Below are positions 239-33,305 of a stretch of DNA of 64,000 bases, one piece after another (the stretch's first letter is position 1; every line of letters begins with the position of its first letter). A program made the translations under genes and the position numbers. The DNA is from an uncultured Acidimicrobiaceae bacterium. GTDB taxonomy: Bacteria; Actinomycetota; Acidimicrobiia; Acidimicrobiales; RAAP-2. A model generated the notes under the pieces. It searched no databases. It saw nothing but the letters and a program-made list of their open reading frames with translations, and had not been told where the DNA came from. Location of the stretch: NCBI GenBank assembly GCA_963754445.1, contig CAVWFT010000003.1, forward strand, positions 76,348 to 140,347. The letters are read 5' to 3'.

Positions 239-266
239 CTATCGGCCTATGCCGGGGTCACCTTTA
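239..266 (-). promoter_or_regulatory. Sigma-28/FliA-type promoter candidate for flgB: TAAA-N16-GCCGATAG
   Basis: Minus strand reads TAAAGGTGACCCCGGCATAGGCCGATAG. The TAAA overlaps the stop codon of the sulfotransferase gene. Known consensus is TAAA-N15-GCCGATAA. Confidence 0.6.
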
Positions 267-1475
267 GTGTTGGCCCGCCGCGCTGCACTGCATCGCCTCC
301 GCCGCGGCGGCCTCCATCACCTCGGCCGAGGCGAGGAGGCCCCACCCCGACGAGCCGAGGTAGCCGGCCAGTCCGTCCAAGAAGTCTTTCTCGCTCCCGA
401 ATCGCTGCGGGACGTCGCCGTAACGACGCACCGCTCGGCGCTTCAAGGCACTACCGAAGTTCTCGGTGCCGGCGCACAGTCCGTCCAGCGCGGATCGCTC
501 GACGGCGACGACACAGGCCGGAGGCCCCCCGTCGTCGGGTGCCGGCGCGCCGAGCATGGCCGGTACGAAACCGTGCACGACGGCGCGGGCCCGCACCTCG
601 TGACCGTCGACCACCCTGATCTCGAGCGTGCCGTCGTCGGTCCGGACGATCGGACCTCCGCCGCTTCCCCACTCGTTGCCGACCAGGTCGTATCCCAGTT
701 GCTTGAGCAGTTGGTTCATGGCGTCACGCACGGGGATGCCCAGTCGTTCGGGCGGGATGCGGGCTCCTCTCCCGATCGACTCGGCGTGGACGGCGCGTGT
801 GTGCCAGATCTTGTAGTCGGCCGGACCCGAGGACTCGTGGGGCTGGGTGAAGGTGTCGACCGTCGACGTCGGGCTGTCGACGCCGAAAAGCTGCCAGACC
901 TCTGCCATGGACGCGTCGGTCCCGGTCACCAGATCTTCGTAACGGAGGCGCAGGCACCGGCCGGGGTGAGCCTGCTCGAAGGCCAACATGGCCGCCGTGC
1001 GCTCGATCCAGTACCCGCAGACGGCCAGCACGGTGTTGTGCGGGCTCATCTGGGCATAGGACCCGAGGCCGAAGCTGTCGAGTCCCCACTCGGACGCCTC
1101 GAGCAGCGACGCCGTCACGTCCATGCAGTGCCGGTGGAGCAGGATGAAGCGGGCCTCGGGCCAGGCCTCGGCGAGCTGCTCGAGCTCAGCGACGTTGGAG
1201 AGCGATTTGTCGCACCACCGTTGCTTCCCGGCGGCTTCGAGGTGGGATGCCATGAGGGTGTCGACCACGGCCCGGGCCCTTGGCAACACGGTGTCGGCGG
1301 CGAGACCGGCGGCGCGGGCTGAACCGGCGTAGGCGGAAACGAGGGTGGCGAGATCGGTCTCGCCCGGACACGAGATCTGCTCGTGCGCGTCGATCAACCA
1401 GCGCAGCAACGTGGAGCCACTGCGGGCGTTGCAGGCCACGAACACGGGTCCCGAGACCGTCATCGACACCGTCAC
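264..1475 (-). CDS. Sulfotransferase-family protein with an extra C-terminal domain of about 120 aa, last gene of the fliE-fliK operon
   Basis: ORF 264..1766 trimmed to GTG 1475, which overlaps the fliK stop as GTGA (alternative ATG at 1463). Has a PAPS-binding-like motif VACNARSGSTLLRW and a RHCMDVTAS region typical of sulfotransferases. Confidence 0.75.
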   Translation of the reverse strand: MTVSMTVSGPVFVACNARSGSTLLRWLIDAHEQISCPGETDLATLVSAYAGSARAAGLAADTVLPRARAVVDTLMASHLEAAGKQRWCDKSLSNVAELEQLAEAWPEARFILLHRHCMDVTASLLEASEWGLDSFGLGSYAQMSPHNTVLAVCGYWIERTAAMLAFEQAHPGRCLRLRYEDLVTGTDASMAEVWQLFGVDSPTSTVDTFTQPHESSGPADYKIWHTRAVHAESIGRGARIPPERLGIPVRDAMNQLLKQLGYDLVGNEWGSGGGPIVRTDDGTLEIRVVDGHEVRARAVVHGFVPAMLGAPAPDDGGPPACVVAVERSALDGLCAGTENFGSALKRRAVRRYGDVPQRFGSEKDFLDGLAGYLGSSGWGLLASAEVMEAAAAEAMQCSAAGQH

Positions 1476-3439
1476 AGCCGGATGTCCACTCGTCGGCCAC
1501 CGTCGAGCTGTTCGCCCGAGATTGCATCGGTCTCGGAGTCGCGGCGCCCATAGTCGGGTGCGATGTGCTCGGCCGAGGACTTGCTGTTTCCCTGGCCCGG
1601 ACTTGCGTGGCCCTGAGGGGTGCGGTCCCCACGTGGATCCGGCTGCGCCGAACCGAAGTCGGCCAGGTCCACGTTCACGCGGCGGTCGGATCCCTCCGTC
1701 AGTTGGCTGTGGAGCTGGTTGATCGTCTGGGAGAGTGCAGCATGACCGGTGGCCGAGTCGGCCCACAGGCTGACCGACACCTCCTCGCCGGCGACAGAGA
1801 CCGTGGCCTGCACGTTGCCCAGGCCCTCGGGTTGCAGAGACATCGTCACCGAGTGACTGCCGTCGTCGCCGGCCCGCAGCGGGGCGAGCACAGTCAGGAC
1901 CTGCTGCGCCACCGGATCATCGGGAGCGACCGTTCCCGCCCCGGCGAAGGACGCCGTCGGCAGCGCAGTGGGTGCGGTTGCTGTGGGCGGCGCAACACCT
2001 GCCAGTGCCACGGGCGCCAGCCCGGCCGTGGTCGCAGCATTCGTCGTTGGCGCCGCACCTGACGTGGTGCCCGCACCCGACGGTGAACCAGCGGGCGTCG
2101 GCGCCGACCCGGGATCGGATCCCGCACTGGTCGATCGAGGCGTTGACCCCGGTGGGGTCGTCGGAACGGTTGGCGACGTCGTGGCAGGCAACCTGGGGTC
2201 GAGGCGCGAAGACGCGGGCGGCGGCGCGCCTCCCCCAGCCGTCGGCTGTTCCGAGCCACTCTGGCCACGATCACGATCGTTCGACCCCGACGCACGGTCG
2301 GCGGAGCCGGGACCGGTCGGCTCCTCGCTCGAGGAAGACCCCGCGGCACCGGTCGCCGGCGCGGCAATCGACCGGAGACGTCCGTCGTCGGCCCGCCTCG
2401 GAGCCGAGGCGGTCGCCGCGCCCGCTTGGACCTCGTTCGCCGGGCGTTGCGCACTCTGCCCGACCTCAGGCTCGGACGAGCCGGGTGCACGTACCGCAGG
2501 CAGCTCCGATCCACGCCCTGACGAGACAGTGCCGGCCGGCGAGTTGTTGCCGGCGCCCTGTTGCGTGCCGCTCGTCGTGTCGGTCCCACCTGAACGGGCC
2601 GGAGCAGATCCCACGGTGCCCTGGACCTCCGGTGCCGGGGCCGACCGGGGCGCTGGCGCTCCCGAGCGCGCCGGGACCGGCGAGTCGGGAGTCGGGTCGA
2701 CCTGCGTCGCCGCCCGACCACTCGCTACAGGCTGGGCCGCCGGCGGCGTCGTTTCCGGTGACACGGTCGACCTCTCGGCAGCGATCGGGACAGCGGACGT
2801 CGAATCGTCCCTGGTTGTCGCCCCAACCGACCCGCCGGAGCTTTCGGCGCTCGTCGTGCCGGCGGGCCACGAAGGGACCCGGGCCAGCGGATCGTCACGC
2901 CCATCGGTCGTCGGGTCGGCCGGTGCTGCGCTCTGCGCGCTGACGTGGGGGTTCGCGTTGGTGGCGAGGAGGGCCGAGGAACCGGCCGATGACGGGAGAT
3001 CGAGGGCGGAGTGGGCGTCGTTGGCGGATCCGCCGCGGGGGTCGAGCACTGCCGTCGCACCAACCGACGGGAGCTGGGCAACGGTCGGCGCAGAGGTCGG
3101 AGTCACCGCCGCACCCGACGGGCTCGTTGACACGGCGCTGGAGGGCGCTGTGCTCACCCGCGTCCCGTGAGACCGGCGCGTCGGGCCCGGCTCGGCACCG
3201 GCGCCATGGGACTCCGACGGGTCGGACCCGTGTGGGCGGCCCTTTTGATCGCCCCGCTGCTGCACGGACGCAGAAGCGACATCGAGTGCGTCGGTGAACG
3301 CAGCCGCGGTCCCCGTGTCCAACGTGGCTTGGCTGTCGGCCGCTGCCGGGGCGCTCTGTGCCGCAGGCGCCGCAGGATCGGGCCGCGCCGGGTGCGGGGC
3401 CACGAGGTTCGCCAGAGCGGATCCCCCGGCCGCCGTCAT
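1472..3439 (-). CDS. fliK: Flagellar hook-length control protein FliK
   Basis: Pro/Ser/Ala-rich, 655 aa. C-terminal hook-length domain (SVTMSLQPEGLGNVQATVSVAGEEVSVSLWADS..). ATGA overlap with the upstream hydrolase gene. Confidence 0.85.
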   Translation of the reverse strand: MTAAGGSALANLVAPHPARPDPAAPAAQSAPAAADSQATLDTGTAAAFTDALDVASASVQQRGDQKGRPHGSDPSESHGAGAEPGPTRRSHGTRVSTAPSSAVSTSPSGAAVTPTSAPTVAQLPSVGATAVLDPRGGSANDAHSALDLPSSAGSSALLATNANPHVSAQSAAPADPTTDGRDDPLARVPSWPAGTTSAESSGGSVGATTRDDSTSAVPIAAERSTVSPETTPPAAQPVASGRAATQVDPTPDSPVPARSGAPAPRSAPAPEVQGTVGSAPARSGGTDTTSGTQQGAGNNSPAGTVSSGRGSELPAVRAPGSSEPEVGQSAQRPANEVQAGAATASAPRRADDGRLRSIAAPATGAAGSSSSEEPTGPGSADRASGSNDRDRGQSGSEQPTAGGGAPPPASSRLDPRLPATTSPTVPTTPPGSTPRSTSAGSDPGSAPTPAGSPSGAGTTSGAAPTTNAATTAGLAPVALAGVAPPTATAPTALPTASFAGAGTVAPDDPVAQQVLTVLAPLRAGDDGSHSVTMSLQPEGLGNVQATVSVAGEEVSVSLWADSATGHAALSQTINQLHSQLTEGSDRRVNVDLADFGSAQPDPRGDRTPQGHASPGQGNSKSSAEHIAPDYGRRDSETDAISGEQLDGGRRVDIRL

Positions 3440-4542: not shown

Positions 4543-4982
4543 GGGGAGAACTCCTGCTCGCCTGCGATGAAGCGGGCCGTGACGATCCCGTCGACCTCGG
4601 TCGCCTCGTGGCGCGCATCTTCGGCGCGCAGCTCCTCGAGCTTGCGCTCCTGCAGTCGCTCCAGCGCCTCGACCCGCTGCGCCGCCTCGCGCCAGCGGCG
4701 CAGGGCGACCGCCGCTTGTGCCTCCGCCAGGGAGAGCTGGGTAGTGGCCTCGACCAGGCTCGCCGCCGCGAGGTCGGCCGATGCACTCTCCCGGTGGAAC
4801 ACCGTGGCGGACACCGGACCGCTCGACACGGGGACCTCTCGGTAGCGCTGAGCCGACTGGTCGCGCGTCTCGGCGGCGGCGTGCACGGTCCGGTTCCCAC
4901 GCGACAGATCGGCGCGCGCAGACTCCTCTTGAGCACGCCGAACCCGCAACACGGTCTCGAGTCGGAAGCTTCGCTTGCTCAC
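4539..4982 (-). CDS. fliJ: Flagellar export chaperone FliJ
   Basis: Coiled-coil protein of 147 aa (FRLETVLRVRRAQEE...). GTG 4982 overlaps the fliI stop as GTGA. Canonical position after fliI. Confidence 0.75.
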   Translation of the reverse strand: MSKRSFRLETVLRVRRAQEESARADLSRGNRTVHAAAETRDQSAQRYREVPVSSGPVSATVFHRESASADLAAASLVEATTQLSLAEAQAAVALRRWREAAQRVEALERLQERKLEELRAEDARHEATEVDGIVTARFIAGEQEFSP

Positions 4983-9996: not shown

Positions 9997-10125
9997 GGGC
10001 GAATCTCCAACCAGGCCCGGGCAGCATTTGCCCTGGCACTCCAACTGCGGGACACAGTCACCACCCCTTGGACGTCACGTCGATGGCGTCATCGCGCGTT
10101 GCGCGACGAGCGTCACTCTCACCGT

Positions 10126-10162
10126 GCCCTTCCTGGGCGATCTACCGCTGGCATTCCCTGCC
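10126..10162 (-). promoter_or_regulatory. fliE leader module with hairpins GGCAGGGAAUGCC and GCCCAGGAAGGGC (second copy of the flgB leader module)
   Basis: Read directly on the minus strand and colinear with 192..227. Confidence 0.45.
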
Positions 10163-10172
10163 CGCACCATTT

Positions 10173-10200
10173 GTCTCGGAGGATTGGCAGGCCACCTTTA
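10173..10200 (-). promoter_or_regulatory. Sigma-28-type promoter candidate for the fliE operon: TAAA-N16-TCCGAGAC
   Basis: Minus strand reads TAAAGGTGGCCTGCCAATCCTCCGAGAC. Shares TAAAGGTG with the flgB promoter. Confidence 0.45.
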
Positions 10201-13599: not shown

Positions 13600-13627
13600 G
13601 TGTCGGCTGCCGCCAAGGACAGCCTTA
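13600..13627 (-). promoter_or_regulatory. Sigma-28-type promoter candidate for fliD-fliS: TAAG-N16-GCCGACAC
   Basis: Minus strand reads TAAGGCTGTCCTTGGCGGCAGCCGACAC, about 40 nt upstream of the fliD ATG. Confidence 0.4.
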
Positions 13628-13650
13628 GTACTGCAATGAAGATTGCGCCG

Positions 13651-13695
13651 CGTCCCCGGAAGCGGTCGGGACCACGTGGACCACTTCCAGGGACG
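13651..13695 (-). terminator. Stem-loop after fliC, a candidate terminator or attenuator
   Basis: 12-bp stem CGUCCCUGGAAG/CUUCCGGGGACG. It is complete (one G-U pair) only on the minus-strand RNA. No U-tract follows. Confidence 0.4.
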
Positions 13696-13709
13696 ACGGA
13701 CGCAAACCT

Positions 13710-14546: not shown

Positions 14547-14550
14547 CCGT

Positions 14551-14578
14551 TCCTCCTGGGTTGTGCCCCATCCATGGG
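14551..14578 (-). promoter_or_regulatory. fliC leader: GGA-loop hairpin CCCAUGGAUGGGG plus SD CAGGAGGA (candidate CsrA binding sites)
   Basis: Minus strand reads ...GUCCCAUGGAUGGGGCACAACCCAGGAGGAACGGAUG. Confidence 0.5.
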
Positions 14579-14657
14579 ACTCTTTTTGTCTGTCTAGGTT
14601 CCCTTCGCCGAGGTATCAGGTTTCCCCCTCCTCACCCGAACCTGGGCACCGTGAATA

Positions 14658-14684
14658 CAGTCGGCTGGCCACCAGCGGGCTTGA
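14658..14684 (-). promoter_or_regulatory. Sigma-28-type promoter candidate for fliC: TCAA-N15-GCCGACTG
   Basis: Read on the minus strand. An alternative perfect -10 GCCGATAG lies at 14722..14715 but has no good -35. Confidence 0.3.
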
Positions 14685-14723: not shown

Positions 14724-14751
14724 TCAACCCTCCTGAACAGGCCGCCGATAC
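14724..14751 (+). promoter_or_regulatory. Sigma-28-type promoter candidate: TCAA-N16-GCCGATAC, ending 6 nt before the ATG at 14758
   Basis: Plus strand reads TCAACCCTCCTGAACAGGCCGCCGATACctgatcATG. Confidence 0.5.
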
Positions 14752-14757
14752 CTGATC

Positions 14758-17058: not shown

Positions 17059-17188
17059 GGTCGTAGGGTCGACCAAGCCGCGACAGGCGGAGCGATCTCT
17101 TCGTGTCGTCGGCGAGCGACGGAGTGGCGCGCACACCGAGCTGCGCAAGCAGCATTCGTCGGGGTCACGAACCGGGCGCTGGCCCAGG

Positions 17189-19564: not shown

Positions 19565-19830
19565 CAGGGAGATCGGTGCCGCCGCGGTGGCGTGGTCCGA
19601 CGTGCGCCCACCTGCTCCGGGAGCGTGGCGATGGCCCGCGGCGCGCGGCGCGGTGACGCGACCCCCGCCGCCACGAGAGCGACTGCCGGACTTTCGACCT
19701 CCCCGCTGGGGCACGACGTTGATGGTCGTCGCGAAACCGTTCGAAATTGAGCGTTTCTTGATCAAACGACGCGGGCGGACAGGTGCGCCGACGGCTGAGC
19801 GATGCGACCAGAGTTGGTCGGGCGGCACCT

Positions 19831-19890
19831 GTGGGTCGTGCGGTGGGTCGTGCGGTGGTTCGTGCGGTGGTTCGTGCGGTTGGTCGGGCG
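19831..19890. repeat. 12-nt tandem repeat, about 5 copies of gtgg(g/t)tcgtgcg
   Basis: Units at 19831, 19843, 19855 and 19867, plus a degenerate unit at 19879 that is identical to 19813..19824. Confidence 0.85.
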
Positions 19891-19903
19891 GTCCGTCGAT
19901 CAT

Positions 19904-19940
19904 GTCCGCCGGTGACGTCCGCCGGTGACGTCCGCCGGCC
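19904..19940. repeat. 13-nt tandem repeat gtccgccggtgac, about 2.6 copies
   Basis: Read directly. Confidence 0.8.
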
Positions 19941-19975
19941 GGGAATTCCGTGTCGACTCAGGTCAGTGCCACATC

Positions 19976-20003
19976 TCAAGAATCCCTGAAGGTGGGCCGA
20001 TGT
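19976..20003 (+). promoter_or_regulatory. Sigma-28-type promoter candidate for the FkbH-like gene: TCAA-N16-GCCGATGT
   Basis: Plus strand reads TCAAGAATCCCTGAAGGTGGGCCGATGT. Confidence 0.45.
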
Positions 20004-20081
20004 CTGGTTTGAGGTGTTGCGGCCGCCCGAGCGGCAGGGCACGAGAGCAGTTGGCTCTCTCCCACCGAAGGAGGACCCCCG

Positions 20082-22367
20082 TTGCAGTACTTCGTGGCAT
20101 TCCACCAGCTCGATGTGCTCGACGGCATGGAAGGCCGGTGCGTCACGGGGCTGTACCCGCACCTGCGCCTGGTCTCCCTCCTGCCCGCCGACGTCACCGT
20201 GCACGCCGCAGCGAAGCTGCCCCCGCATCTGCGCCAACGCATCATCACGGACCCCGCACCCGAGCTCGTGCGCACCGGCCTGCACGGAGTGCTCAGCGCC
20301 GACAGCATCGAGACCCGCCAGATCCTGACCACCGTCCCGCCCGACGTCATCTTCGACTGGGGCGGCCTCAACGTGGCCTACGAGCGTTGGCTGCACACCG
20401 TCTACCTCCCACACTGCGCCACCACCGCCCTGTACAGCCCCGAGAACCTCTACCCGTCGGACTGGACGACCCAGCCGATGACGATCGACATCGTGGGCAG
20501 TTGCGAGGCCTACTTCATGGAACAGCAGGTGCAGGCGGTCGCCACCCAGCTGGGGGTGCAGATCAGCTCGTACCACACGCTGCAGAACCATCCCGTCGCC
20601 TCGGCGTCCGCCGGGGGGCCCGCCACCGCTCGACTCGTCGTGCCGCCGCTGCGCTACATGCATCCCGACACCCTGGACGACATCGTCGTGCACGCCAACC
20701 ACCTGCGACTCTTCGAGGAGTCGAGGTCCAGGTTGGTGGCGTACCTCGATTCGATCCTGGTCGGCCACGACGACACGCCACAGTTCGTCACCGGGTTCAT
20801 CGAGCCGTGCGTGAATCCGCTGGGTGTTTCCTTCCACGGCGCCGACCTGTCCAACCTCAAATACTTCGTGCGCTGCCTCAACGACGTGATCATCGAGTGG
20901 TGCGACGGTCACGCACAGACCTGGTACATCGACGCCAACGAGACCGCAGCGATGATCGGCAAGAATTACATCGACGACGGCCCCATCGCCCACTACGCGC
21001 ACCGCATCCCGTTCGACCCCTACGACGACTGGGTGGAGCGGGATGATCCGGTGGCCACGCAGCCGCTCCTGCGCAGCTTCGAGATCCGATCGTCCAACTT
21101 CTACGCCGCCGTCATCCGCGAGGTCTGCACCCGCCTGGCCATGCTCACAGGTCGTGACCAGGTCAAGGCGGTGATCGTCGACCTGGACAACACGCTCTGG
21201 CGCGGTCTCGCTTCGGACCAGGCCGTGGGATCGTGGAACGGGCGACCCCAGGGCATCGTGGAGGCGCTCAAGGTGCTCAAGAAGCGCGGTGTCCTCCTTG
21301 CCGTGGCGAGCAAGAACGACGAGGCCTACATCCGGACCCACTGGAACCGCATCCTGCATGAGTACGCGGAGGTGCCGCTGGGCTGCGCGTTGAGCCTGGA
21401 CGACTTCGACAGCGTCCGCATCGACTTCCGCCCGAAGTCGGTCACGGTGGGCGAGATCCTGGCCGAGCTGAACATCCACGCCGACGCCACCGTGTTCGTC
21501 GACGACAACCCTCTCGAGCGCGAGGAGGTCCAGGCCGCCTTTCCCGCCATGCGGGTCCTCGGCGCCGAGCTCAACTACGTGCGCCGCGAGCTCCTGTTCA
21601 GCCCCTTCACCCAGCACGCGCGACTCACTGCGGAGGACGCCACTCGTTCGGCGACCGTGCGCCAGCAGGCCTTGCTCGGCGAGCATCGCGCAGCCGGGAC
21701 GGCTGACGACTTCTTGTCCTCGCTCGGGCTGACCTGCCGGGTGACCGAAGTCGACGATCCCGCCGCGGCCGAGGCGCAACGCGCCGTGCAGCTGATCAAC
21801 AAGACGAACCAGTGGAACCTCAACGGCGGACGTCTCGGCGAGGGCGACCTGCGGCGGGCGCTGGCCGGGGGCCAACGGCTCTTCGTGGCCCACACCAAGG
21901 ACCGCTCGAACGACTACGGGCTGGTGGCGGCCGCGCTGATCGACGAGTCGGCCGAGCGGATCACGCACATGGTGGTCAGCTGCCGGGTGATCGGGATGGG
22001 CATCGACGCAGCACTGGCCCATGCCGTGCTCAGCCGGTTCGGGCCGGCACTGGCCTTCGCCTACGCCGACAGCGGGCGCAACATGGCCGTGCGCAGCTTC
22101 CTGCAGGGCCACCTGCGCCCGAACGGATCGCCCACCGACGGGGGCGGCGGCGACGATGGGGCCGGCGGCAACGGCCTCGAGGCGGGCCCGGTCGTGCTCG
22201 GCGGCGTGGACGCGCCCACGCACATCGAACTGAGCGTCGAGGCACCACGTTCGGCGCCGGAGACGGCACCGTCGGCGCGGCCGGCACCGTCGGGGGGGCC
22301 GGTCGCCGCAGCCGGCGCCGGCGTCCACGGCCGGACCGGGGACGACGCGCGTCCCGTCGCCGGCTAA
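20082..22367 (+). CDS. FkbH-like protein: unknown N-domain, HAD-IIIC phosphatase-like domain and GNAT-like C-domain
   Basis: HAD motif VIVDLDNTLW...ASKN...VDDNP. TTG start behind GAAGGAGG. Confidence 0.8.
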   Translation: MQYFVAFHQLDVLDGMEGRCVTGLYPHLRLVSLLPADVTVHAAAKLPPHLRQRIITDPAPELVRTGLHGVLSADSIETRQILTTVPPDVIFDWGGLNVAYERWLHTVYLPHCATTALYSPENLYPSDWTTQPMTIDIVGSCEAYFMEQQVQAVATQLGVQISSYHTLQNHPVASASAGGPATARLVVPPLRYMHPDTLDDIVVHANHLRLFEESRSRLVAYLDSILVGHDDTPQFVTGFIEPCVNPLGVSFHGADLSNLKYFVRCLNDVIIEWCDGHAQTWYIDANETAAMIGKNYIDDGPIAHYAHRIPFDPYDDWVERDDPVATQPLLRSFEIRSSNFYAAVIREVCTRLAMLTGRDQVKAVIVDLDNTLWRGLASDQAVGSWNGRPQGIVEALKVLKKRGVLLAVASKNDEAYIRTHWNRILHEYAEVPLGCALSLDDFDSVRIDFRPKSVTVGEILAELNIHADATVFVDDNPLEREEVQAAFPAMRVLGAELNYVRRELLFSPFTQHARLTAEDATRSATVRQQALLGEHRAAGTADDFLSSLGLTCRVTEVDDPAAAEAQRAVQLINKTNQWNLNGGRLGEGDLRRALAGGQRLFVAHTKDRSNDYGLVAAALIDESAERITHMVVSCRVIGMGIDAALAHAVLSRFGPALAFAYADSGRNMAVRSFLQGHLRPNGSPTDGGGGDDGAGGNGLEAGPVVLGGVDAPTHIELSVEAPRSAPETAPSARPAPSGGPVAAAGAGVHGRTGDDARPVAG

Positions 22368-22392
22368 AGCCCACCTCGCCCCGCGCCGATAT
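22365..22392 (+). promoter_or_regulatory. Sigma-28-type promoter candidate for flhA: TAAA-N16-GCCGATAT
   Basis: Plus strand reads TAAAGCCCACCTCGCCCCGCGCCGATAT. The TAAA overlaps the stop codon of the FkbH-like gene. Confidence 0.6.
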
Positions 22393-22472: not shown

Positions 22473-24511
22473 TGACGCGCAATCGGATCGGTTTGATCGG
22501 CATCCCGGCCGGTGTGGTCGGGATCGTCGTCATGCTGATCGTGCCGATGCCGCCGTACCTGCTGGACGTCCTCATCAGCCTGAACATCTCGGCCGCCGTG
22601 ATCGTGATGCTCATGAGCATGCACGTCAGGAAGCCGCTCGACTTCTCGGCCTTCCCCGCCCTCCTCCTCGTGGCCACCATGTTCCGGCTGGCCCTCAACG
22701 TCAGCGCCACCCGCCTCGTCCTCGAGCACGGCTACGCCGGCGCGGTCATCGAGTCGTTCGGTTCCTTCGTCGTGGGCGGCTCCCTCATCGTCGGGCTCGT
22801 CGTCTTCCTGATCCTGATCGTCATCCAGTTCGTCGTCGTGACCGCCGGTGCGGGTCGCGTGGCCGAGGTCGCCGCTCGATTCACCCTCGACGGCATGCCC
22901 GGCAAGCAGATGGCCATCGACGCCGATCTCAACTCGGGCTCCATCAACGAGCAGGAGGCCAAGCGCCGACGGGCGGAGATCTCGAACGAAGCCGACTTCT
23001 ACGGCGCCATGGACGGTGCGTCCAAGTTCGTCCGTGGTGACGCCATCGCGGCCGTCATCATCACCCTGATCAATCTGATCGGCGGGTTCGCTGTCGGGAT
23101 CCTCCAACAGCACCTCTCCCCGAGCGACGCCGTACACACGTACTCGCTCCTCAGCGTGGGTGACGGACTCGTCTCGCAGATCCCGGCCCTGCTCCTGTCG
23201 ATCTCGACCGGCATCATGGTGACCCGGGCCGCCACCGAGGACGACTTCGGGACCGACGTACTCACGCAGCTGCGCCGCCAGCACAACGCGGTGCGGGTGG
23301 CCGGCGTCGTCATGATCGCCCTGGCCCTCATCCCCGGGCTGCCCCACATCGCCTTCCTCATCGTGGGCGGCCTCCTCATGCTGGCCGCCAGCCGCTTCCG
23401 GAGGACTACCAACGCCCCGGCTCCGGCCGAGGAGCTCGTGGAGGCGGCGCCCGAGGTCGACTCCCCCGCCGCGCTGGCCGGCGAGGTCCGCATCGACCCG
23501 CTCGAGCTCGAACTGGCCCTCGACCTCATCGACCTCGTCGGTGACGGCGGCGATCTCCTCGACCGGGTCAAGGGTCTGCGGCGCAAGGTGGCCGGCGACC
23601 TCGGGCTGATCGTGCCGCCGGTGCGCACCCGCGACAACCTCGACCTGGCCCAGGGGACCTACACGATTCTGTTGCACGGCGTCGAGGCCGGGCGGGGCAT
23701 GGCGCCTCCCGGTCGCCTGCTCTGCATCGGTGACGGCATCGATGCCCTGCCGGGCGAGTCGACCGTCGAGCCCGTCTTCGGCCTCGGGGCCAAGTGGGTG
23801 CCGACGGAGTTGCGCCAGCAGGCGCTCATGGCGGGGGCCACCGTCGTCGACCGCTCGTCGGTCATCACGACGCACCTGGGCGAGGTGATCTCGGAGAACG
23901 CCGGACGCCTGCTCTCGACCCAGCAGCTGCGCACGCTGCTCGATCTGGTCAAAGAGCGCGAGCCGGTCGTGATGGAGGAGATGGCCGCGGCCAACCTGGC
24001 CCTGAGCGAGCTCCAGCGCGTCCTGTGCGAGCTTCTCAACGAGGGTGTGCCGATCCGCGACCTGGCCCGCATCACCGAGGCCGTCAGCGAGCGGGCCCGG
24101 GTCAGCAAGGACCCCGACGCGCTGCTCGAGGCGGCGCGCAACGCATTGGGGCCGGCCATCACGGCGCTCTACGCCGAGGACGGGACGCTGTACGTCCTGA
24201 CCATCGAGGCCATGGACGAGCGCATGCTCCTCGACTCGGTGACCGCCGGGGAGTACGGCCTGATGCTGGCCATCGACCCGAGCATGGCCGAGCGCCTGGC
24301 CCAACAGGCCGGCTTCCTGTGCGAGCAGGCCGAGCAGGCCGGCCACCAGCCGGTGCTGCTGTGCTCGTCACGCCTGCGACCGGCGGTCCAGCGGCTGCTC
24401 CACGGCCCGGTGCCGCGCCTGCACGTGATCGGCGTCAACGAAGTCTCTTCCAACGTGAAACTCGAACGACTGGGGACGGTGCAACTTGCCCACGAAATCG
24501 CTGCTGCTTGA
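22469..24511 (+). CDS. flhA: Flagellar export apparatus protein FlhA
   Basis: Canonical FlhA N-terminal TM region and FHIPEP motif (RFTLDGMPGKQMAIDADL). 680 aa. ATG at 22472 is an alternative start. Confidence 0.95.
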   Translation: MMTRNRIGLIGIPAGVVGIVVMLIVPMPPYLLDVLISLNISAAVIVMLMSMHVRKPLDFSAFPALLLVATMFRLALNVSATRLVLEHGYAGAVIESFGSFVVGGSLIVGLVVFLILIVIQFVVVTAGAGRVAEVAARFTLDGMPGKQMAIDADLNSGSINEQEAKRRRAEISNEADFYGAMDGASKFVRGDAIAAVIITLINLIGGFAVGILQQHLSPSDAVHTYSLLSVGDGLVSQIPALLLSISTGIMVTRAATEDDFGTDVLTQLRRQHNAVRVAGVVMIALALIPGLPHIAFLIVGGLLMLAASRFRRTTNAPAPAEELVEAAPEVDSPAALAGEVRIDPLELELALDLIDLVGDGGDLLDRVKGLRRKVAGDLGLIVPPVRTRDNLDLAQGTYTILLHGVEAGRGMAPPGRLLCIGDGIDALPGESTVEPVFGLGAKWVPTELRQQALMAGATVVDRSSVITTHLGEVISENAGRLLSTQQLRTLLDLVKEREPVVMEEMAAANLALSELQRVLCELLNEGVPIRDLARITEAVSERARVSKDPDALLEAARNALGPAITALYAEDGTLYVLTIEAMDERMLLDSVTAGEYGLMLAIDPSMAERLAQQAGFLCEQAEQAGHQPVLLCSSRLRPAVQRLLHGPVPRLHVIGVNEVSSNVKLERLGTVQLAHEIAAA

Positions 24512-26111
24512 CGGACCGGACCTCGAGGAGCTCCTGGCCCGTGCCATGAACGAAGCCGGCCCGGGTGGGCGCGTGGCCAGCGCCGACCGGGTGCGACGGG
24601 GCGGGATCGGCGGATTCTTCGCCCGCGAACACTTCGAAGTGGTGATCGAGATCGACGACTACGAGGAGACCGGCGAGACGTCGCCGGCGGCGGCGTCGTC
24701 GGCTCCGAAGCTGGTCACGTCCTCGACCGGGCGGGCCTCGTCACCTCCTGCCGGGGCCCGCAACTGGACCGACCTGGCTGAAGGGACCGAGGACTTCCTC
24801 GACATCTCCGGTACGACCTCGCCGAGCCCCGAGGCGGAACCGGCATCGCCGGCCGCCCCTGCGGCGCTCGGGTCGGAGGCCCGGATGCCCTCCACCCAGA
24901 AGGCGTCCTTCGCCGCCATGTTGACCGCGATCGCCCGGGACACGGTGGCGGACGAGGACGTGCCCGCCGCCATCGACGCCACCGGCGCCACCGTTCTGGG
25001 CGACGACCCCACGTTGGTCGTCCCGGCGGTGACCGGCCCCGCCGAGACGGCTCCCCCGGCGACGACGCGCCGCCGGCAGACCTTCACGGGGACCACCACC
25101 ACGAGCAGGAGCGGCGCCTGGATCGAGGCCATCGCCGAGGCCCGCCCCGAACCGGAGCCCGCGCCCGCTGCCGAGTCGGCGTCCGCCCACCTGCCGAACC
25201 CGGCCGGCGACGGCATCACCGCCGACGCCCAGACTCCCGTGCTGGCCGCCGAGTTGTTCGCCCACCTCGACGCGGCCGTCACGTCGACGGGCATCGCTGC
25301 GACGGGCGGCAACCGGGCTCCGATCGCGTCGTCGGTCGTGCAGCCGGCTCTGGCCTCGCTCGGCCTGCCGGCCGACCTGTTGCCGGAGGACTCGATCCTG
25401 TCCTGCCTCGAGAAACTGAGCACGACGAACGACGCCCAGACCTACGTGGAGGTCGCGCTGACCTCCGCCCTGCAGCGCCTGCCGGCGCCACCGCAACCGC
25501 CCGACCGGCCCGGCTCCGTCATGGTCATCGTGGGGGACCTCGACCGGGCGCTCGAATGCGCCGCCACGCTGGCCGATCGGGCCGGCATCGACCTCGACAC
25601 CATCGTGGTCGCGTCCCAGGCCCGCCACCGGCGCGGCGTCATGGCCCGACACCGCCTCTCGACCCCCGAAGAGGCGGCGGAGCTGGCCTCTCGCAGCCGG
25701 CGCATGCCGCACCCGGTGATCGTCGCCATGCACGCGCCGGTCTCGGCCGAACCCGACCGTTGGGCCATGCGCCTGCTCGCAGCGCTCTCCCCCGCCGCCG
25801 TGTGGGGCGTCGCCTCGGCGACGCACAAGTGCGAGGACCTGGCGGCATGGGGCGAAGGCCTCGGCGGCCTCGACGCCCTGGCGCTCGAGGATCTGGCGGC
25901 CACCACGAGCCCGGCCGACGCCCTGGCCTCCGGCATCCCCGTCGCCATCCTCGACGGGCAGCACGCCACGCCCGCGCTGTGGGCGGCGCTCATCGCCGCC
26001 CGGCTGCTGATCGCCCGGGTCGCTGCTTCCGCTGCACCGGGCCGGGCCATGACGGCGTCGGCCAACCAGGCCGGACTCGGCTCGACGGTGGGCCGGGCCG
26101 GGACGGTTTGA
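24486..26111 (+). CDS. flhF: FlhF-like protein with degenerate GTPase motifs
   Basis: FlhF-type N-terminus (DLEELLARAMNEAGPGGRV...GGIGGFFAREHFEVVIEID). C-terminal region aligns by eye to the SRP-GTPase fold but reads VMVIVGDLDRAL where the P-loop is expected. No GK[ST] anywhere in the protein. TTG start. Confidence 0.6.
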   Translation: MPTKSLLLDGPDLEELLARAMNEAGPGGRVASADRVRRGGIGGFFAREHFEVVIEIDDYEETGETSPAAASSAPKLVTSSTGRASSPPAGARNWTDLAEGTEDFLDISGTTSPSPEAEPASPAAPAALGSEARMPSTQKASFAAMLTAIARDTVADEDVPAAIDATGATVLGDDPTLVVPAVTGPAETAPPATTRRRQTFTGTTTTSRSGAWIEAIAEARPEPEPAPAAESASAHLPNPAGDGITADAQTPVLAAELFAHLDAAVTSTGIAATGGNRAPIASSVVQPALASLGLPADLLPEDSILSCLEKLSTTNDAQTYVEVALTSALQRLPAPPQPPDRPGSVMVIVGDLDRALECAATLADRAGIDLDTIVVASQARHRRGVMARHRLSTPEEAAELASRSRRMPHPVIVAMHAPVSAEPDRWAMRLLAALSPAAVWGVASATHKCEDLAAWGEGLGGLDALALEDLAATTSPADALASGIPVAILDGQHATPALWAALIAARLLIARVAASAAPGRAMTASANQAGLGSTVGRAGTV

Positions 26112-26113
26112 TC

Positions 26114-26401
26114 ATGGGTGTCCGGCGACCGGAGCTGGTCCTGGGGGCGGCCGTTCTCGTCAGCTTGCCCATGGTGCCCGACATCCTGAGCGGCGCCATC
26201 GACACGACGGCCGCGCTCGTGCGCTTCCTCGGGGCCATCCTCGTCTGCTGGGTGTTGGCCTCGATCGTGCAGTCGGTCGTGGACCGGTACGCCGATGCGG
26301 CCGCCCAGCGCGAGTACGAGGTGCAGTTGGCCCGGGCACGGGCCCAGCACGTGACGGCGTCGGACATCGAAAGTCCCGGAGGTCCCGCGGCACAGGGGTG
26401 A
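26114..26401 (+). CDS. Small membrane protein, 95 aa, two predicted TM helices
   Basis: ATG lies 3 nt after the flhF-like stop. Hydrophobic segments LVLGAAVLVSLPMV and FLGAILVCWVLASIV. Confidence 0.5.
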   Translation: MGVRRPELVLGAAVLVSLPMVPDILSGAIDTTAALVRFLGAILVCWVLASIVQSVVDRYADAAAQREYEVQLARARAQHVTASDIESPGGPAAQG

Positions 26402-26450: not shown

Positions 26451-26771
26451 GTGTTGGTCTTGAGCCGCCGGTCCCATGAAAGCATCCGGATCGGTGACAC
26501 CATCGTCATCACCGTGCTCGAGGTCCGAGGCGACCACGTGCGGCTCGGCATCGATGCTCCCCACGACGTCGAAGTCCATCGCCAAGAGGTCTACGACGCC
26601 ATCCAGACGGCGAACGTCTCGGCCGCATCGCCCGCGCCGGTGGCCGTGGCTGCCGCGGCCTCTGCACTACGTCGGGCCATGGGGAACGGGGCCGCGGGGG
26701 ATGCCGCCCCGTCGCCGGATGAGGCGGCGGGTCCTGAGGGTGCCCGCCCTCCTCGAACCGACACCGACTGA
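26451..26771 (+). CDS. csrA: Carbon storage regulator CsrA with a long Ala/Pro-rich C-terminal tail
   Basis: MLVLSRRSHESIRIGDTIVITVLEVRGDHVRLGIDAPHDVEVHRQEVY. GTG start behind GAGGAGG. Confidence 0.9.
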   Translation: MLVLSRRSHESIRIGDTIVITVLEVRGDHVRLGIDAPHDVEVHRQEVYDAIQTANVSAASPAPVAVAAAASALRRAMGNGAAGDAAPSPDEAAGPEGARPPRTDTD

Positions 26772-26908: not shown

Positions 26909-27403
26909 CTAGCGGGCCGCGCTCGCCACGGCCGGCGGCACCAGGGGCGCCGCCACGTCGTACTCGGAGCCGTGCATCACGACCTGGGCCGCAGCCCCGT
27001 TGCGTCGGTTGACGACGATCGGACCCAGCAGGTTCGCCGTGGGTGAACTGCCGTCCTCGGCCAGGGTCACGATCGAGAGCACGGCGGCATCCTCGGCCTG
27101 TAGCCCGAGCCGCTCCACCGTCTCCTCGTCCACCTCGACCTGGTAGTCGGGGAACAGCAGCCCCGGCGGCACGACGATGAACTCGACGCCCGGCGGTTGG
27201 GTGGCGCGCAGGCGGCAGAACGGCGCCAAGTCTCCGGGCATCGGCTCGATGACGAAGTCACGCAATTCGTCGAAGCCGGGTATCCCGACGGCGAACGTGA
27301 CCTCGAGAACCTCGTCGGTGTCGGTCGTGCGATCGAGCAGTACCGGCGTCGGGCCGGCACCAGTTTCGGCGGGAGGAGTCATGTCTTCACCGGTTCCGCT
27401 CAT
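26909..27403 (-). CDS. fliW: Flagellar assembly factor FliW (CsrA antagonist)
   Basis: FliW-like core (VTFAVGIPGFDELRDFVIEP...FIVVPPGLLFPDYQVEV...ANLLGPIVVNRRN). ATG 27403 overlaps the flgL stop as ATGA. Confidence 0.85.
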   Translation of the reverse strand: MSGTGEDMTPPAETGAGPTPVLLDRTTDTDEVLEVTFAVGIPGFDELRDFVIEPMPGDLAPFCRLRATQPPGVEFIVVPPGLLFPDYQVEVDEETVERLGLQAEDAAVLSIVTLAEDGSSPTANLLGPIVVNRRNGAAAQVVMHGSEYDVAAPLVPPAVASAAR

Positions 27404-28359
27404 CCCGCACCCAAGAACGAAACAAGCGAAGGCTGGACCAAGTTGGCCGTCGCCCACAGCGCCGTTTGGTACGAGTTCTGCTGCTGCGTGAGGTTGGTCA
27501 TCGCCTGGGGCAGGTTGACGCTCTGGATCCCCGACAACTCGGAGTTCAGAGCTGCCTGCGTGCTCGAGGCTTGCGTCGAGAGGGCCTGCATCTGCTGGTA
27601 CTGGGCCCCCAGCTGGGCCGCCTGGTTCTCGACGGTGGCAATGGCGCTGTCGAGATTCTGCAGATCGGTTCCCGACGCGGCCGCCAGCGACGTCGGCGTT
27701 CCCGTCGAGATGTCCTGCGAGATCTGCGCCAGCACACCGAGGCTGCCCGGTGTCGTGCTGAGCAGGCCGGTCGTCCCGGTCCCGAAGACCGAATCACCGG
27801 TCACCGAGATGGCGACCTGGGTCCCCGGGGCCACGGTCCGCACGGGTGCATTGCCGCCCCCGACGTACGTGCCGCTCGAGTCGAAGGCGGTGGTCACGTT
27901 GCCCGTGCCGGCGAAGATCGCCTGGCCGTTGTAGTTGGTGTTGGCCAGGTTGAGCAGGGTCTGCTGGGCCTGGCTGACCTGGTCGGCCAGGGCCGACAGC
28001 CCGGACTGGGAACCCGACAACGTGGCCGAGCTGATGGAGAGCACGTTCTGGCGCACCGACTGCAGCGTGCTGATGATCTCGTTCATGGTGGAGTTGCCCT
28101 GCTGGAGCCAACCGAGACCGTCACTCGCGTTGTTGGAGTACGAGGTCGAGCGGCTCAGCGCCGCATTGATCTGCATGATGTTGGCGGCCAGCGCCGGGTT
28201 GTCCGAGGGCTGGTTCACCACGTTGCCCGTCGACAGCTGCTCCTGGAGCTGCGCGATCGACGTCTCGTCGCTGTTCAGATTGGAGATCATCTCGTCGTTC
28301 ATGACCGACGGGGTGAGTTGGATGGACGGCATGAACGACCCACTCATCGACACGGTCAT
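27400..28359 (-). CDS. flgL: Hook-filament junction protein FlgL
   Basis: Flagellin-like N and C termini (LQEQLSTGNVVNQPSDNPALAA). Follows flgK. Confidence 0.85.
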   Translation of the reverse strand: MTVSMSGSFMPSIQLTPSVMNDEMISNLNSDETSIAQLQEQLSTGNVVNQPSDNPALAANIMQINAALSRSTSYSNNASDGLGWLQQGNSTMNEIISTLQSVRQNVLSISSATLSGSQSGLSALADQVSQAQQTLLNLANTNYNGQAIFAGTGNVTTAFDSSGTYVGGGNAPVRTVAPGTQVAISVTGDSVFGTGTTGLLSTTPGSLGVLAQISQDISTGTPTSLAAASGTDLQNLDSAIATVENQAAQLGAQYQQMQALSTQASSTQAALNSELSGIQSVNLPQAMTNLTQQQNSYQTALWATANLVQPSLVSFLGAG

Positions 28360-29910: not shown

Positions 29911-30399
29911 CTATGCGGTGGCGTTCAACAGCTGCACGCCGGAGCGCCCCCGGCCGGCCCGTCGGCCGGACGCCGCGTAGGCCACGGCCGGCTGCACTCC
30001 GAGGTATGCCAGGGCGTCGGTCGTCGCTGCCATGCGGCGGGCCAGGATCTCGCGGTTCGCCGCCGACACCTTCTCGATCTGTTCGAAGTGGTCGAGCATG
30101 GCCTGACGGTGACCAGCCAGGATCTCGCTCCACGGCTCGGGGGCCGCGGCCACGAGCGCAGCCAAGGTCGGGGCCGAGCCCAGACCAAGTTCCACCCCCA
30201 CCGCGGCGACCGCTTCTTCCCGTTCGGTGTCGGCCAACTCCAGCATCTCCACCACTTGCTCGACCTCGGCTGTGGCGCGGTCGAGCCAACTGTGGTGCCC
30301 GGAGGCGAGGATCAGATGTTCCTCGGCCAACTTGAACCGGAGAAGCTCCAACACACAGCGCTCGCGCCACAGGCGAGTCGACAGCTCGTCGAAACCCAT
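29911..30399 (-). CDS. flgN: FlgN-family flagellar chaperone
   Basis: Helical protein of 162 aa directly upstream of flgK. FlgN-like pattern (LWRERCVLELLRFKLAEEHLIL...). Confidence 0.7.
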   Translation of the reverse strand: MGFDELSTRLWRERCVLELLRFKLAEEHLILASGHHSWLDRATAEVEQVVEMLELADTEREEAVAAVGVELGLGSAPTLAALVAAAPEPWSEILAGHRQAMLDHFEQIEKVSAANREILARRMAATTDALAYLGVQPAVAYAASGRRAGRGRSGVQLLNATA

Positions 30400-30406
30400 A
30401 TGTGCT

Positions 30407-30434
30407 GTATCGGCAGCCCCGCGGACCCGGTAAA
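30407..30434 (-). promoter_or_regulatory. Sigma-28-type -10 GCCGATAC ending 7 nt before the flgN ATG (weak -35 TTTA at N16)
   Basis: Minus strand reads TTTACCGGGTCCGCGGGGCTGCCGATACagcacatATG. Confidence 0.45.
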
Positions 30435-31937: not shown

Positions 31938-32722
31938 CAGGCTGCTTTCTGCGGCGCGCGGACTTCGTCCCGATCCTTGGGCGGCAGGTAGGACAGCAGC
32001 TTGGACTGCACCATGCGCGGGCTGTTGCCGGCCTGGATGGCCAAGATGCCGTCCATGACGAGGCGGCGCCCCTGTGCTTCCTGTTCACTCGCTCGCTTGA
32101 GCTTGTTCGAGATCGGGAGCCAGAAGAGGTTGGCCGAGAGCACGCCCCACAGCGTGGCGGTGAACGCCTCGGCGATAGCCGGGCCGAGAACCTGCGGGTT
32201 CGACAGGTTGGCCAGCACGTGGATCAGACCGATGACCGTGCCCAAGATGCCGAGGGTGGGGGCGAAGCCGCCCATGTCGGCGAAGAATTTCACGCCCGCC
32301 TTGTGTCGCTGCTGGAGCGAGTGGATCTCGCCGTCGAGGATCTCACGGATCTCCTCGGGGTCGTTGCCATCGACGGTCATCTCGATCCCGCGCTTGAAGA
32401 AGGGATCCTCGACCTCCGCTCCGGCCTTCTCGAGGGCGAGCAAGCCCTCGCGCCGGGCCACCTCGGCCAGCTCGATCAATCGCCCGATGTCCTCGTTCAT
32501 ATCCTTGGGCGTTCCGCCGATGGCCTGCGAGAACGCTCCCTTGAAGCCCTTGACGTCGCTCTTCATGTAGCCGGCCACGGCGACGCACGTGGTGCCGCCG
32601 AAGCAGAGCAACAGGGGCGCCGGCTTGAAGAGCACCATCGGGTTGGAGCCCTCCAAGAACATGGAGACGAAGACGCAGCCAAGGGCACCGAGGATGGCGA
32701 AAAGCGTGAAGCGGTCTTTCAT
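31937..32722 (-). CDS. motA: Flagellar stator protein MotA
   Basis: Four-TM MotA/TolQ/ExbB-type protein of 261 aa. One-nt overlap with motB. Confidence 0.9.
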   Translation of the reverse strand: MKDRFTLFAILGALGCVFVSMFLEGSNPMVLFKPAPLLLCFGGTTCVAVAGYMKSDVKGFKGAFSQAIGGTPKDMNEDIGRLIELAEVARREGLLALEKAGAEVEDPFFKRGIEMTVDGNDPEEIREILDGEIHSLQQRHKAGVKFFADMGGFAPTLGILGTVIGLIHVLANLSNPQVLGPAIAEAFTATLWGVLSANLFWLPISNKLKRASEQEAQGRRLVMDGILAIQAGNSPRMVQSKLLSYLPPKDRDEVRAPQKAA

Positions 32723-32731
32723 GGCTGGGCC

Positions 32732-33187
32732 TCAGACTCCCGGGGTCCGGGCGTCCGGCGACGTCGACTCCGTGTTGGTGGTGGGATCGGAGGCGCCGGC
32801 GTCGGCTCCGTTCGCTGCAGGTTCGATCGGCGCGGCCTCGTCCCCGCGGGCAACCGCGCGCAGGGGAACCGGCCGGGTGGAGCTCATGGCGGTGTGGTCG
32901 TAGACCTCGTGGCGGTCCACGACAGGTCCTTTGGTGGATCCACGCACCACGCGCAGGCGTGATTCGCCTTCGTTGGCGTCTTCCTCGAAGACCAGACGAT
33001 GGGACAGGGCGAGCACGGAGGCCCGGAACAGGCGGATGGCGTCGATCAACTCGTCCACGGACTCGGCCACGACGAACTTGGAGCCGTCGGCCATCGTGAG
33101 CACCACGTCGGGTGTGATGTCGGCGCGCTCGATGCGATCTGGGTTGATCGCGACCTTCTCGCCGTTAAGTCTCGTAAGTGGAATCAT
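32732..33187 (-). CDS. flbD: Flagellar protein FlbD with a C-terminal extension of about 80 aa
   Basis: MIPLTRLNGEKVAINPDRIERADITPDVVLTMADGSKFVVAESVDELIDAI is the FlbD signature. Confidence 0.85.
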   Translation of the reverse strand: MIPLTRLNGEKVAINPDRIERADITPDVVLTMADGSKFVVAESVDELIDAIRLFRASVLALSHRLVFEEDANEGESRLRVVRGSTKGPVVDRHEVYDHTAMSSTRPVPLRAVARGDEAAPIEPAANGADAGASDPTTNTESTSPDARTPGV

Positions 33188-33277
33188 CGCGTCCGTGCCT
33201 GCCTGGTCATGCATCCGTGCCAACCACGGGCAAAGGACCGCTCCCTAACCGAGCGGATGGTCCCTGCCGCTGCCGTG

Positions 33278-33305
33278 GTATCGGAGGCCTGCCAAAGCGA
33301 CTTGA
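33278..33305 (-). promoter_or_regulatory. Sigma-28-type promoter candidate for flbD-motAB-fliL: TCAA-N16-TCCGATAC
   Basis: Minus strand reads TCAAGTCGCTTTGGCAGGCCTCCGATAC, followed 9 nt later by GGCAGGGA. Confidence 0.5.

Follow-up and report, generated by a model that had tools for sequence, protein, structure and literature searches.

In the enterobacteria and Bacillus, the early flagellar operons are transcribed with FlhDC and sigma-70 or with sigma-A, and the export of FlgM couples the late genes to hook completion. Flagellin, flgKL and motAB are under sigma-28 (the enterobacterial class 3 genes and the B. subtilis sigma-D regulon), with the consensus TAAA-N15-GCCGATAA. A flatter arrangement has been described in the Actinomycetota. 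In Actinoplanes missouriensis, a sporangium-forming member of the Micromonosporaceae, 11 flagellar transcription units all depend on FliA1/FliA2 promoters, according to the work of Jang et al. 2016 and Hashiguchi et al. 2020 as cited in PMC13083903. Loss of FliQ in that organism leaves the flagellar transcripts unchanged, the checkpoint at the hook-basal body "appears to be not functioning", and a post-transcriptional mode of flagellar control is suspected (PMC13083903). Denis et al. 2026 predicted several WhiG1 sites per flagellar cluster in Actinoplanes, Cellulomonas, and Geodermatophilus and noted the absence of FlgM; their paper makes no mention of the Acidimicrobiia (PMC13595943). Zhu et al. 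2023 reported that flagella are common in the Acidimicrobiia and that FlgM and FlhF are absent from this class (PMC10746217). Here we examine the flagellar gene cluster's promoters in 64,000 nucleotides of contig CAVWFT010000003.1 from an uncultured Acidimicrobiaceae bacterium; "the window" is the whole of this stretch. We consider it roughly 80% probable that most of its flagellar operons, including the early flgB, fliE, and flhA operons, carry a conserved FliA/sigma-28-type promoter in a one-tier design.

The window has a G+C content of 68% and covers the right-hand two thirds of the Acidimicrobiaceae flagellar cluster, the left part of which lies outside. The cluster is of the Gram-positive type and occupies positions 1 to ~33,300. 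To the right of ~33,300 are housekeeping genes and regulators that are unrelated to it. Genes were taken from self-trained gene calls, and their names from Pfam and NCBIfam scans. A preliminary description of this DNA had listed nine sigma-28-like sites. All nine were found at the coordinates and on the strands given there, each pointing at the gene named for it (the names being confirmed by Pfam/NCBIfam) from 7 to about 130 nt upstream. They are given below with scores in bits from a position weight matrix (PWM) built from the nine sites; "strict" refers to the pattern T(A/C)AA-N16-(G/T)CCGA(T/C)A.

239..266, minus strand: flgB operon promoter, cTAAAG-N16-GCCGATAG; strict match; PWM 19.2, leave-one-out 17.9
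10173..10200, minus strand: fliE operon promoter, cTAAAG-N16-TCCGAGAC, with a decayed -10 box; PWM 16.6, leave-one-out 14.1
13600..13627, minus strand: proposed fliD promoter, doubtful, TAAG-N16-GCCGACAC; leave-one-out 12.1, within the coding background
14658..14684, minus strand: fliC promoter, cTCAAG-N15-GCCGACTG; weak, with PWM 12.4 and leave-one-out 9.9; position conserved
14724..14751, plus strand: GT2-TPR promoter, cTCAAC-N16-GCCGATAC, back-to-back with the fliC promoter; strict match; PWM 19.3, leave-one-out 18.5
19976..20003, plus strand: FkbH-domain/HAD promoter, cTCAAG-N16-GCCGATGT; PWM 15.9, leave-one-out 13.4
22365..22392, plus strand: flhA unit promoter, cTAAAG-N16-GCCGATAT; strict match; top PWM score, 20.0, leave-one-out 18.7
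30407..30434, minus strand: flgN unit promoter, TTTA-N16-GCCGATAC; PWM 15.9, leave-one-out 11.5
33278..33305, minus strand: flbD unit promoter, cTCAAG-N16-TCCGATAC; strict match; PWM 18.6, leave-one-out 17.2

The boxes and their spacing match both published consensus sequences, that of the flagellar sigma factor (-35 TAAA, -10 GCCGATAA; PMC8325347) and the actinobacterial WhiG1/2 consensus XT(C/A)AX-N16-GCCGA (PMC13595943), which has the same form as the sites in the window. Seven of the nine sites fit the actinobacterial pattern at N16; the fliC site fits it at N15, and the flgN site fails at the -35 box. The strict pattern occurs four times in the window, always in intergenic DNA, against 0.11 occurrences expected by chance from dinucleotide-preserving shuffles, none of which (0 of 100) reached four. 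The bare heptamer GCCGATA is not significant by itself (6 found, 3.2 expected). The published loose pattern T[CA]A-N17-xxCGA occurs 10 times in 5.5 kb of intergenic DNA and 46 times in 58.5 kb of coding DNA, an enrichment of only ~2.3-fold, so that the signal resides in the full -10 box.

The comparison with coding regions that the preliminary description had proposed bears it out in part. When the window was scanned with the PWM, eight of the sites took ranks 1 to 8 with 14.5 to 20.0 bits. All of these are intergenic and point at a gene, and the top coding match scores 13.6. The fliC site falls within the coding background. Leave-one-out scoring leaves flhA, GT2, flgB, and flbD as a strong group and fliE and FkbH as a moderate one, with fliD, flgN, and fliC not sustained by score alone.

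The nearest public relatives are metagenome-assembled genomes of Acidimicrobiaceae/Acidimicrobiales, which we refer to by locus number. L001 has the same gene order as the window and a FlhA identity of 90%, and the identity of 17 other relatives is 55-62%. Further loci were gathered through FliF homologs with identities from 83% down to about 50%; L091 is the cultured strain Acidiferrimicrobium sp. IK. Intergenic identity between the window and L001 is only 53-69%, and the boxes of flhA, flbD, flgN, GT2, fliC, and FkbH are kept while the spacers and flanks around them have diverged. These six orthologous sites are the six top matches in a PWM scan of L001, where no coding match reaches 12.5. 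In 20 more distant Acidimicrobiales loci (389 kb), which are independent of the sites used to train the PWM, the 45 kb of intergenic DNA contain 12 matches of at least 13.5 and the 344 kb of coding DNA contain 5, an 18-fold intergenic enrichment (Fisher p = 2e-8) that is optimistic because the loci are related to one another. Sigma-28-like boxes recur before flgB, fliC, GT2, flhA, flbD, and fliM in relatives down to ~50% protein identity, and their conservation thereby spans the order. L091 has sites ahead of flhA, the fliM operon, GT2, fliC, and flgB.

The flgB operon promoter is sigma-28-like in every relative examined across the whole range of FliF identity. It reads TAAAG-N16-TCCGATAG/C, with scores of 18.5-19.6, at 83% and 70% identity and TCAAG-N16-TCCGATAG, with 17.5, at 50%. 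By locus, the orthologous sites score 18.5 in L085/L086, 19.6 in L087/L088, 17.5 in L084, 12.4 in L083, and 12.7 in L090, and weaker forms occur in L089, L091, and L092. Counterparts of the fliE site are TAAAG-N16-TCCGAAAA in L086 and TAAAG-N16-TCCGAAGT in L085. The flhA site scores 20.2 in L001, and sigma-28-like sites lie 86-88 nt upstream of flhA in L010 (13.8) and L091 (14.9). The flbD site scores 18.6 in L001, and TCAA-N16-(G/T)CCGTTA(C/T) is found 39-48 nt upstream of flbD in L002, L003, L007, and L008 and also in intergenic DNA of L011. Ahead of fliC, L001 and L085 have TCAAG-N15-GCCGAG, L083, L084, L089, and L090 have sites scoring 15.8, 18.2, 18.2, and 17.2, respectively, and L087/L088 have the CGATAA-type TTCAG-N15-GACGATAA. 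The GT2 site is present in seven relatives (L001 15.8, L086 15.8, L087 19.3, L088 18.2, L089 15.9, L090 18.1, L091 13.5). At the FkbH gene, L001 has TCAAG-N16-GTCGATAG at the aligned position (14.4) despite its diverged flanks. The flgN site of L001 has both boxes identical and five substitutions in the spacer; in more distant relatives flgN lies inside an operon. The fliD site is the one whose conservation did not hold. In the L001 alignment it has no counterpart beyond a shifted TCAT-N16-GCCGACGC, and no site was found before fliD in L083, L084, or L087 to L091.

An ATG lies close behind the -10 box at two of the sites, 7 nt past it for GT2 (14751-14760, plus strand) and 8 nt past it for flgN (30397-30407, minus strand), so these two mRNAs are probably leaderless.

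The preliminary description placed the motif before almost every flagellar unit. The window holds ten flagellar-cluster transcription units, eight of which have a site; the fliD unit is doubtful, and no sigma-28 site was found upstream of the GT4 gene, which is presumably transcribed from some other promoter. Transcription of fliD is probably with or through fliC. The units, and two genes within them to which we return below, are:

GTG start at 127 and running off the left end of the window, minus strand: flgB
10044 down to 264, minus strand: operon of fliE-fliF-fliG-fliH-fliI-fliJ, an NlpC/P60+SLT hydrolase (lytA-like), fliK, and a sulfotransferase
Minus strand: fliD-fliS and a small open reading frame (ORF)
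Minus strand: fliC (flagellin) unit
Plus strand: GT2-TPR glycosyltransferase unit
Minus strand: GT4 glycosyltransferase unit
Plus strand: FkbH-domain/HAD protein unit, the FkbH domain being recognized by TIGR01686
Plus strand: flhA, an FlhF-like gene, a gene for a small membrane protein, and csrA
Minus strand: flgN-flgK-flgL-fliW
Minus strand: flbD-motA-motB-fliL
26451..26771, plus strand: csrA, last gene of the flhA unit (Pfam CsrA PF02599, E = 6.7e-26)
26909..27457, minus strand: fliW, last gene of the flgN unit (Pfam FliW PF02623, E = 1.7e-31)

Two of the early promoters share an origin. The ancestral gene order, retained by most relatives, is flgB-flgC-fliE-fliF, and only in the clade of the window (the window, L085, and L086) have flgB-flgC been relocated behind fliK and the sulfotransferase gene. 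Promoter and leader are thus duplicated, with one copy ahead of flgB and the other ahead of fliE. The region upstream of fliE (10045-10200, minus strand) is collinear with the promoter and leader of flgB (120-266, minus strand) and retains a relic of the ribosome-binding site of flgB and of its GTGTCC start at 10055, where the GTG is out of frame with fliE. In each of the clade's three genomes, the -10 box of the fliE copy has become TCCGA(G/A)A by drift. Global pairwise identity does not set the two upstream regions apart (66%, where unrelated intergenic DNA gives 58-64%), and the score of a covariance model, described below, is the better gauge of their relatedness.

The TAA of all three TAAA-type -35 boxes (264-266, 10198-10200, and 22365-22367) is the stop codon of the upstream ORF on the same strand. 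In L087/L088 the TAAAGGT at the -35 position of flgB is no stop codon, as the upstream gene is on the opposite strand, and conservation of TAAAGGT there therefore does not come from coding constraint. The -35 boxes of the window also suggested two promoter classes, TAAAG for early and CTCAAG for late genes. We rejected this division, given that flgB has TCAAG in L083, L084, and L092 and that flgB and fliE represent one promoter that was copied.

Assignment of the sites to the sigma-28/FliA class, which the preliminary description made for all nine, is well supported by score, position, orientation, and conservation for eight of them, and not for fliD, which has no conserved site. Eight of the ten units would thus start at a cT(A/C)AAG promoter of the FliA/SigD/WhiG class with a 15-16 nt spacer and a (G/T)CCGA(T/C)A box. 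We infer that a FliA/WhiG1-type sigma factor encoded outside the window directs RNA polymerase to all eight and that transcription starts at them. Its direct targets would include the rod, MS-ring, and export operons (flgB, fliE-fliK, and flhA), the hook-junction operon flgN-flgKL-fliW, the stator operon flbD-motAB-fliL, the flagellin gene fliC, and two flagellin-modification genes (GT2 and FkbH-like). In this scheme sigma-28 would not be confined to late genes as it is in the enterobacteria and Bacillus. The sites of the early operons rank with the best of the window and are kept in the relatives; these operons carry the sigma-28 motif, unlike those of the enterobacteria and Bacillus, and no FlgM was found in the window.

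The closest resemblance is to A. missouriensis, likewise a member of the Actinomycetota with a Gram-positive-type cluster that contains a lytA-like NlpC/P60-SLT gene, with a CTCA/TAAA-spacer-GCCGA motif before early and late operons, and with no FlgM detected, in the present case within the window. The organism of the window differs in being a unicellular member of the Acidimicrobiia, known here from sequence alone, and its cluster differs in containing csrA and fliW, in having GGA hairpins in its early leaders, and in having no evident TcrA-type activator. As in the clusters with WhiG1 sites (PMC13595943, Fig. 6), several XT(C/A)AX-N16-GCCGA sites per cluster lie within 200 bp of a start codon, and flagellin and flbD, the most frequent WhiG1 targets in that study, are both targets in the window. 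That study reads the WhiG1 sites as mainly late-stage control, whereas the best matches in the window are on flgB and flhA. The flat or differently wired hierarchy suggested in the preliminary description is reasonable and matches the experiments with A. missouriensis, with room left by the sequence for read-through and for unrecognized housekeeping promoters. The novelty that the description implied does not stand, since a one-tier design had already been described in the Actinomycetota. What is new is the lineage: the Acidimicrobiia, a deep and mostly uncultured class, extend the known sigma-28-only wiring beyond Actinoplanes. This suggests that the one-tier design may be old in a lineage that lost FlgM and not an adaptation specific to zoospores. 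The promoter model T(A/C)AAG-N15/16-(G/T)CCGA(T/C)A can be used to find motility regulons in metagenome-assembled genomes of the Acidimicrobiia.

Several points weigh against the one-tier reading. The nine sites were said to fit the strict pattern, and only four do (flgB, GT2, flhA, and flbD); the others deviate by GAGA (fliE), TAAG (fliD), N15 and GACT (fliC), GATG (FkbH), and TTTA (flgN). The fliC and flgN sites owe their standing to conservation, which for flgN comes from one close relative only. The early sites of flgB and fliE are one promoter counted twice and so are not independent. The -35 boxes of flgB, fliE, and flhA abut an upstream stop codon, and read-through from the upstream units is possible. 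A scan of 37 kb for the sigma-70 consensus and terminators gave nothing above chance and is uninformative at 68% GC; the degeneracy of housekeeping promoters in Actinomycetota of high GC content is too great for them to be discounted on such a basis. No sigma factor gene was found in the 64-kb window. In favor of the reading, a tblastn search with an approximate E. coli FliA query gave one sigma match, in L011, where a FliA/WhiG-like sigma gene (17173-17964, minus strand) directly follows csrA. Its best NCBIfam match, TIGR02479 (FliA_WhiG), scores 157 bits, below the curated cut-off of 189.6. Homologs of this sigma factor, named FliA by the Joint Genome Institute (JGI), are abundant in similar metagenomes, and none of the best 120 matches is on the contig of the window.

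Transcription of the early operons mainly from unrecognized housekeeping promoters or by read-through would make the sigma-28 sites secondary feedback boosters and would leave a hierarchy in place. We regard this as unlikely. Read-through is plausible in the window, where each of the early -35 boxes (flgB, fliE, and flhA) shares bases with the preceding stop codon on the same strand and no terminator intervenes, and the decay of the fliE -10 box throughout the clade (three genomes) could be tolerated if fliE were also transcribed from elsewhere. Secondary promoters have precedents: the minor PD-3 promoter upstream of the B. subtilis fla/che operon, the nearest analogue of a sigma-28 site on an early operon, is reportedly sigma-D-dependent (West et al. 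2000, in the reference list of PMC13083903), and some enterobacterial operons have both class 2 and class 3 promoters. In L087 to L090, however, the flgB promoter follows a divergent methyltransferase gene, so that read-through cannot feed flgB; it is the only recognizable promoter there, and in L087/L088 it is the top match of the locus (19.6). The absence of a sigma-70-like site in 37 kb is a weak test that points the same way, as does the finding that mutation of fliQ leaves flagellar transcript levels unchanged in A. missouriensis (PMC13083903). In the one-tier reading we infer the absence of another tier.

The boxes could also be read by one or more sigma-28-family paralogues under other control, either a WhiG2-type factor with an RsiG armed by cyclic di-GMP (c-di-GMP) or FliA paralogues that divide the operons among themselves. 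WhiG1 and WhiG2 recognize similar promoters (PMC13595943), and A. missouriensis has several FliA paralogues (FliA1, FliA2, and FliA3) with partly overlapping regulons (PMC13595943, PMC13083903). A division of this kind might be seen in the -35 boxes of the window, which fall into a TAAAG group (flgB, fliE, and flhA) and a CTCAAG group (fliC, GT2, FkbH, and flbD). As described above, the split is not conserved at flgB, and an early TAAAG group has two independent members only; we consider control by such paralogues improbable. That the sites are not promoters at all, arising by chance or as a by-product of base composition and of stop codons at gene ends, is very hard to credit. The loose pattern shows merely 2.3-fold intergenic enrichment, three TAAA boxes double as TAA stops, and the leave-one-out scores of fliC, fliD, and flgN are within the coding background. 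Against these stand the four occurrences of the strict pattern where 0.11 are expected, the 18-fold enrichment in independent relatives, the retention of boxes while spacers change, and the presence of sites at the same genes across ~50% protein divergence.

The promoters of flgB and fliE are followed by a structured leader, which is the part of this analysis most worth following up:

183..240, minus strand: flgB 5' leader RNA element, with a P1 hairpin that has GGGAA in its loop and with P2 = GCCCAGGAUGGGC; 63.6 bits with covariance model R1
10117..10175, minus strand: fliE copy of the leader, 66 bits with R1, followed by the relic of the flgB ribosome-binding site and start

In this layout P1 sits close to the mRNA 5' end and has GGA in the apical loop, and the invariant P2, GCCCAGGAYGGGC, begins 5-11 nt after P1. 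Both elements are present in 15 of 15 flgB/fliE leaders of relatives, including those upstream of flgB in L082-L092. Leaders of the hag/flaA type under CsrA control expose at least two GGA motifs in hairpin loops separated by 10-60 nt, and the flgB/fliE leaders, with two GGA-loop hairpins at a distance of 5-11 nt, are in line with this. The P1 stems vary by lineage (ggca/tgcc, ggcga/tcgcc, ggct/agcc, and cccgcca/tggcggg), and P1 comprises at least six base pairs in 8 of the 9 lineages, compared with 15% of shuffles. No double changes emerged when covariation was counted formally on the model-made alignment, in which the three leaders that diverge most were out of register; support for compensatory stems comes from loop-anchored inspection and the shuffle control and not from formal covariation. 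R1, built from 11 leaders, recovered two untrained leaders (L089, 30.8 bits; L090, 29 bits) and found no other strong match in 556 kb, with a weak match on the flhA leader of L011. Rfam gave no match, either in the whole window at the gathering score or in the flgB leader at E <= 1. In flgB, P2 lies ~60 nt upstream of the ribosome-binding site, and folds of the whole leader pair the P2 region with the Shine-Dalgarno sequence of that site.

Weaker hairpins with a GGA loop are likewise present in the leader of flhA in the window, L001, and L010. In the leader of fliC, a CCCA-UGGA-UGGG hairpin (14565-14580, minus strand) lies ~20 nt ahead of an AGGAGGA ribosome-binding site (~14550-14560), a layout that resembles the two CsrA sites of Bacillus hag; the corresponding hairpin in L087/L088 is CCCCA-CGGA-CGGGG. 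In Bacillus-type systems FliW is the antagonist of CsrA. Since csrA and fliW lie in the cluster, CsrA is the obvious candidate ligand of the GGA-hairpin leaders. The combination of csrA and fliW with GGA-loop hairpins is reminiscent of the Hag-FliW-CsrA system of B. subtilis and of the control of flaA by CsrA-FliW in Campylobacter jejuni (PMC4894983). Unlike in those systems, GGA elements are not confined to the flagellin mRNA, and the strongest lie on the early flgB/fliE mRNAs, and the second GGA site of flgB/fliE is not the ribosome-binding site itself, though it is predicted to pair with it. We put forward tentatively, as something less likely than its negation, that the flgB/fliE leader, which is conserved throughout the Acidimicrobiales and was copied to fliE as the operon split, is a CsrA-FliW translational switch that imposes assembly order or homeostasis post-transcriptionally in a regulon without FlgM. 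Were this so, the leader would represent a new cis-regulatory RNA motif that Rfam lacks, and CsrA-FliW control would extend from flagellin to basal-body genes. The GGA-hairpin leader is a testable candidate for the post-transcriptional control that has been suspected, and not located, in Actinoplanes.

As in the preliminary description, neither fliA nor flgM was found in the window, by Pfam and NCBIfam scans and, for the sigma factor, by the tblastn search. Directly after flhA in every Acidimicrobiales locus examined is a gene for a protein that in the window has 541 amino acids (24486-26111, plus strand), in which only an N-terminal FlhF motif was recognized (TIGR03499, E = 1e-4, residues 10-75), with no recognizable GTPase domain. 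It is followed by the gene for a 97-amino-acid membrane protein with two helices (26108-26401, plus strand). We considered the latter ORF as a candidate for FlgM because its position fits; in distant relatives this ORF precedes flgN-flgK-flgL-fliW-csrA, the place that flgM takes in Bacillus. The candidate was rejected, as the product is a hydrophobic two-helix membrane protein with no match to FlgM. The 300-nt region upstream of the L011 sigma gene, which is unusually AT-rich, has no convincing sigma-28 box, and this fliA/whiG-like gene is probably not autoregulated.

The genes for the GT2-TPR protein, the GT4 protein, the FkbH/HAD protein, and the sulfotransferase at the end of the fliE operon make up a flagellin-modification island (14758-22367 and 264-1475), in which two of the genes are each preceded by a sigma-28-type promoter and the GT4 gene is not. 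Just past the fliC stop codon is a long GC-rich hairpin (~13647-13697, minus strand) that is near-identical in L001 and lacks a U-tract. This hairpin may serve as a terminator or stabilizer that sets the level of read-through into fliD. Sigma-28-like sites also occur in coding DNA, a weaker one (13.6) at the fliI/fliJ junction of the window (4906-4932, minus strand) and one scoring 18.2 in the 3' end of fliG, ahead of fliH, in L082 (5926-5953, plus strand); both are possible internal promoters. On the plus strand, 33437-36193 and 46879-49524 each encode a large LuxR-family regulator with AAA/STAND ATPase domains. The gene at 33437-36193 is divergent from the flbD promoter, an arrangement kept in L001, and its product could act upstream of the regulon.

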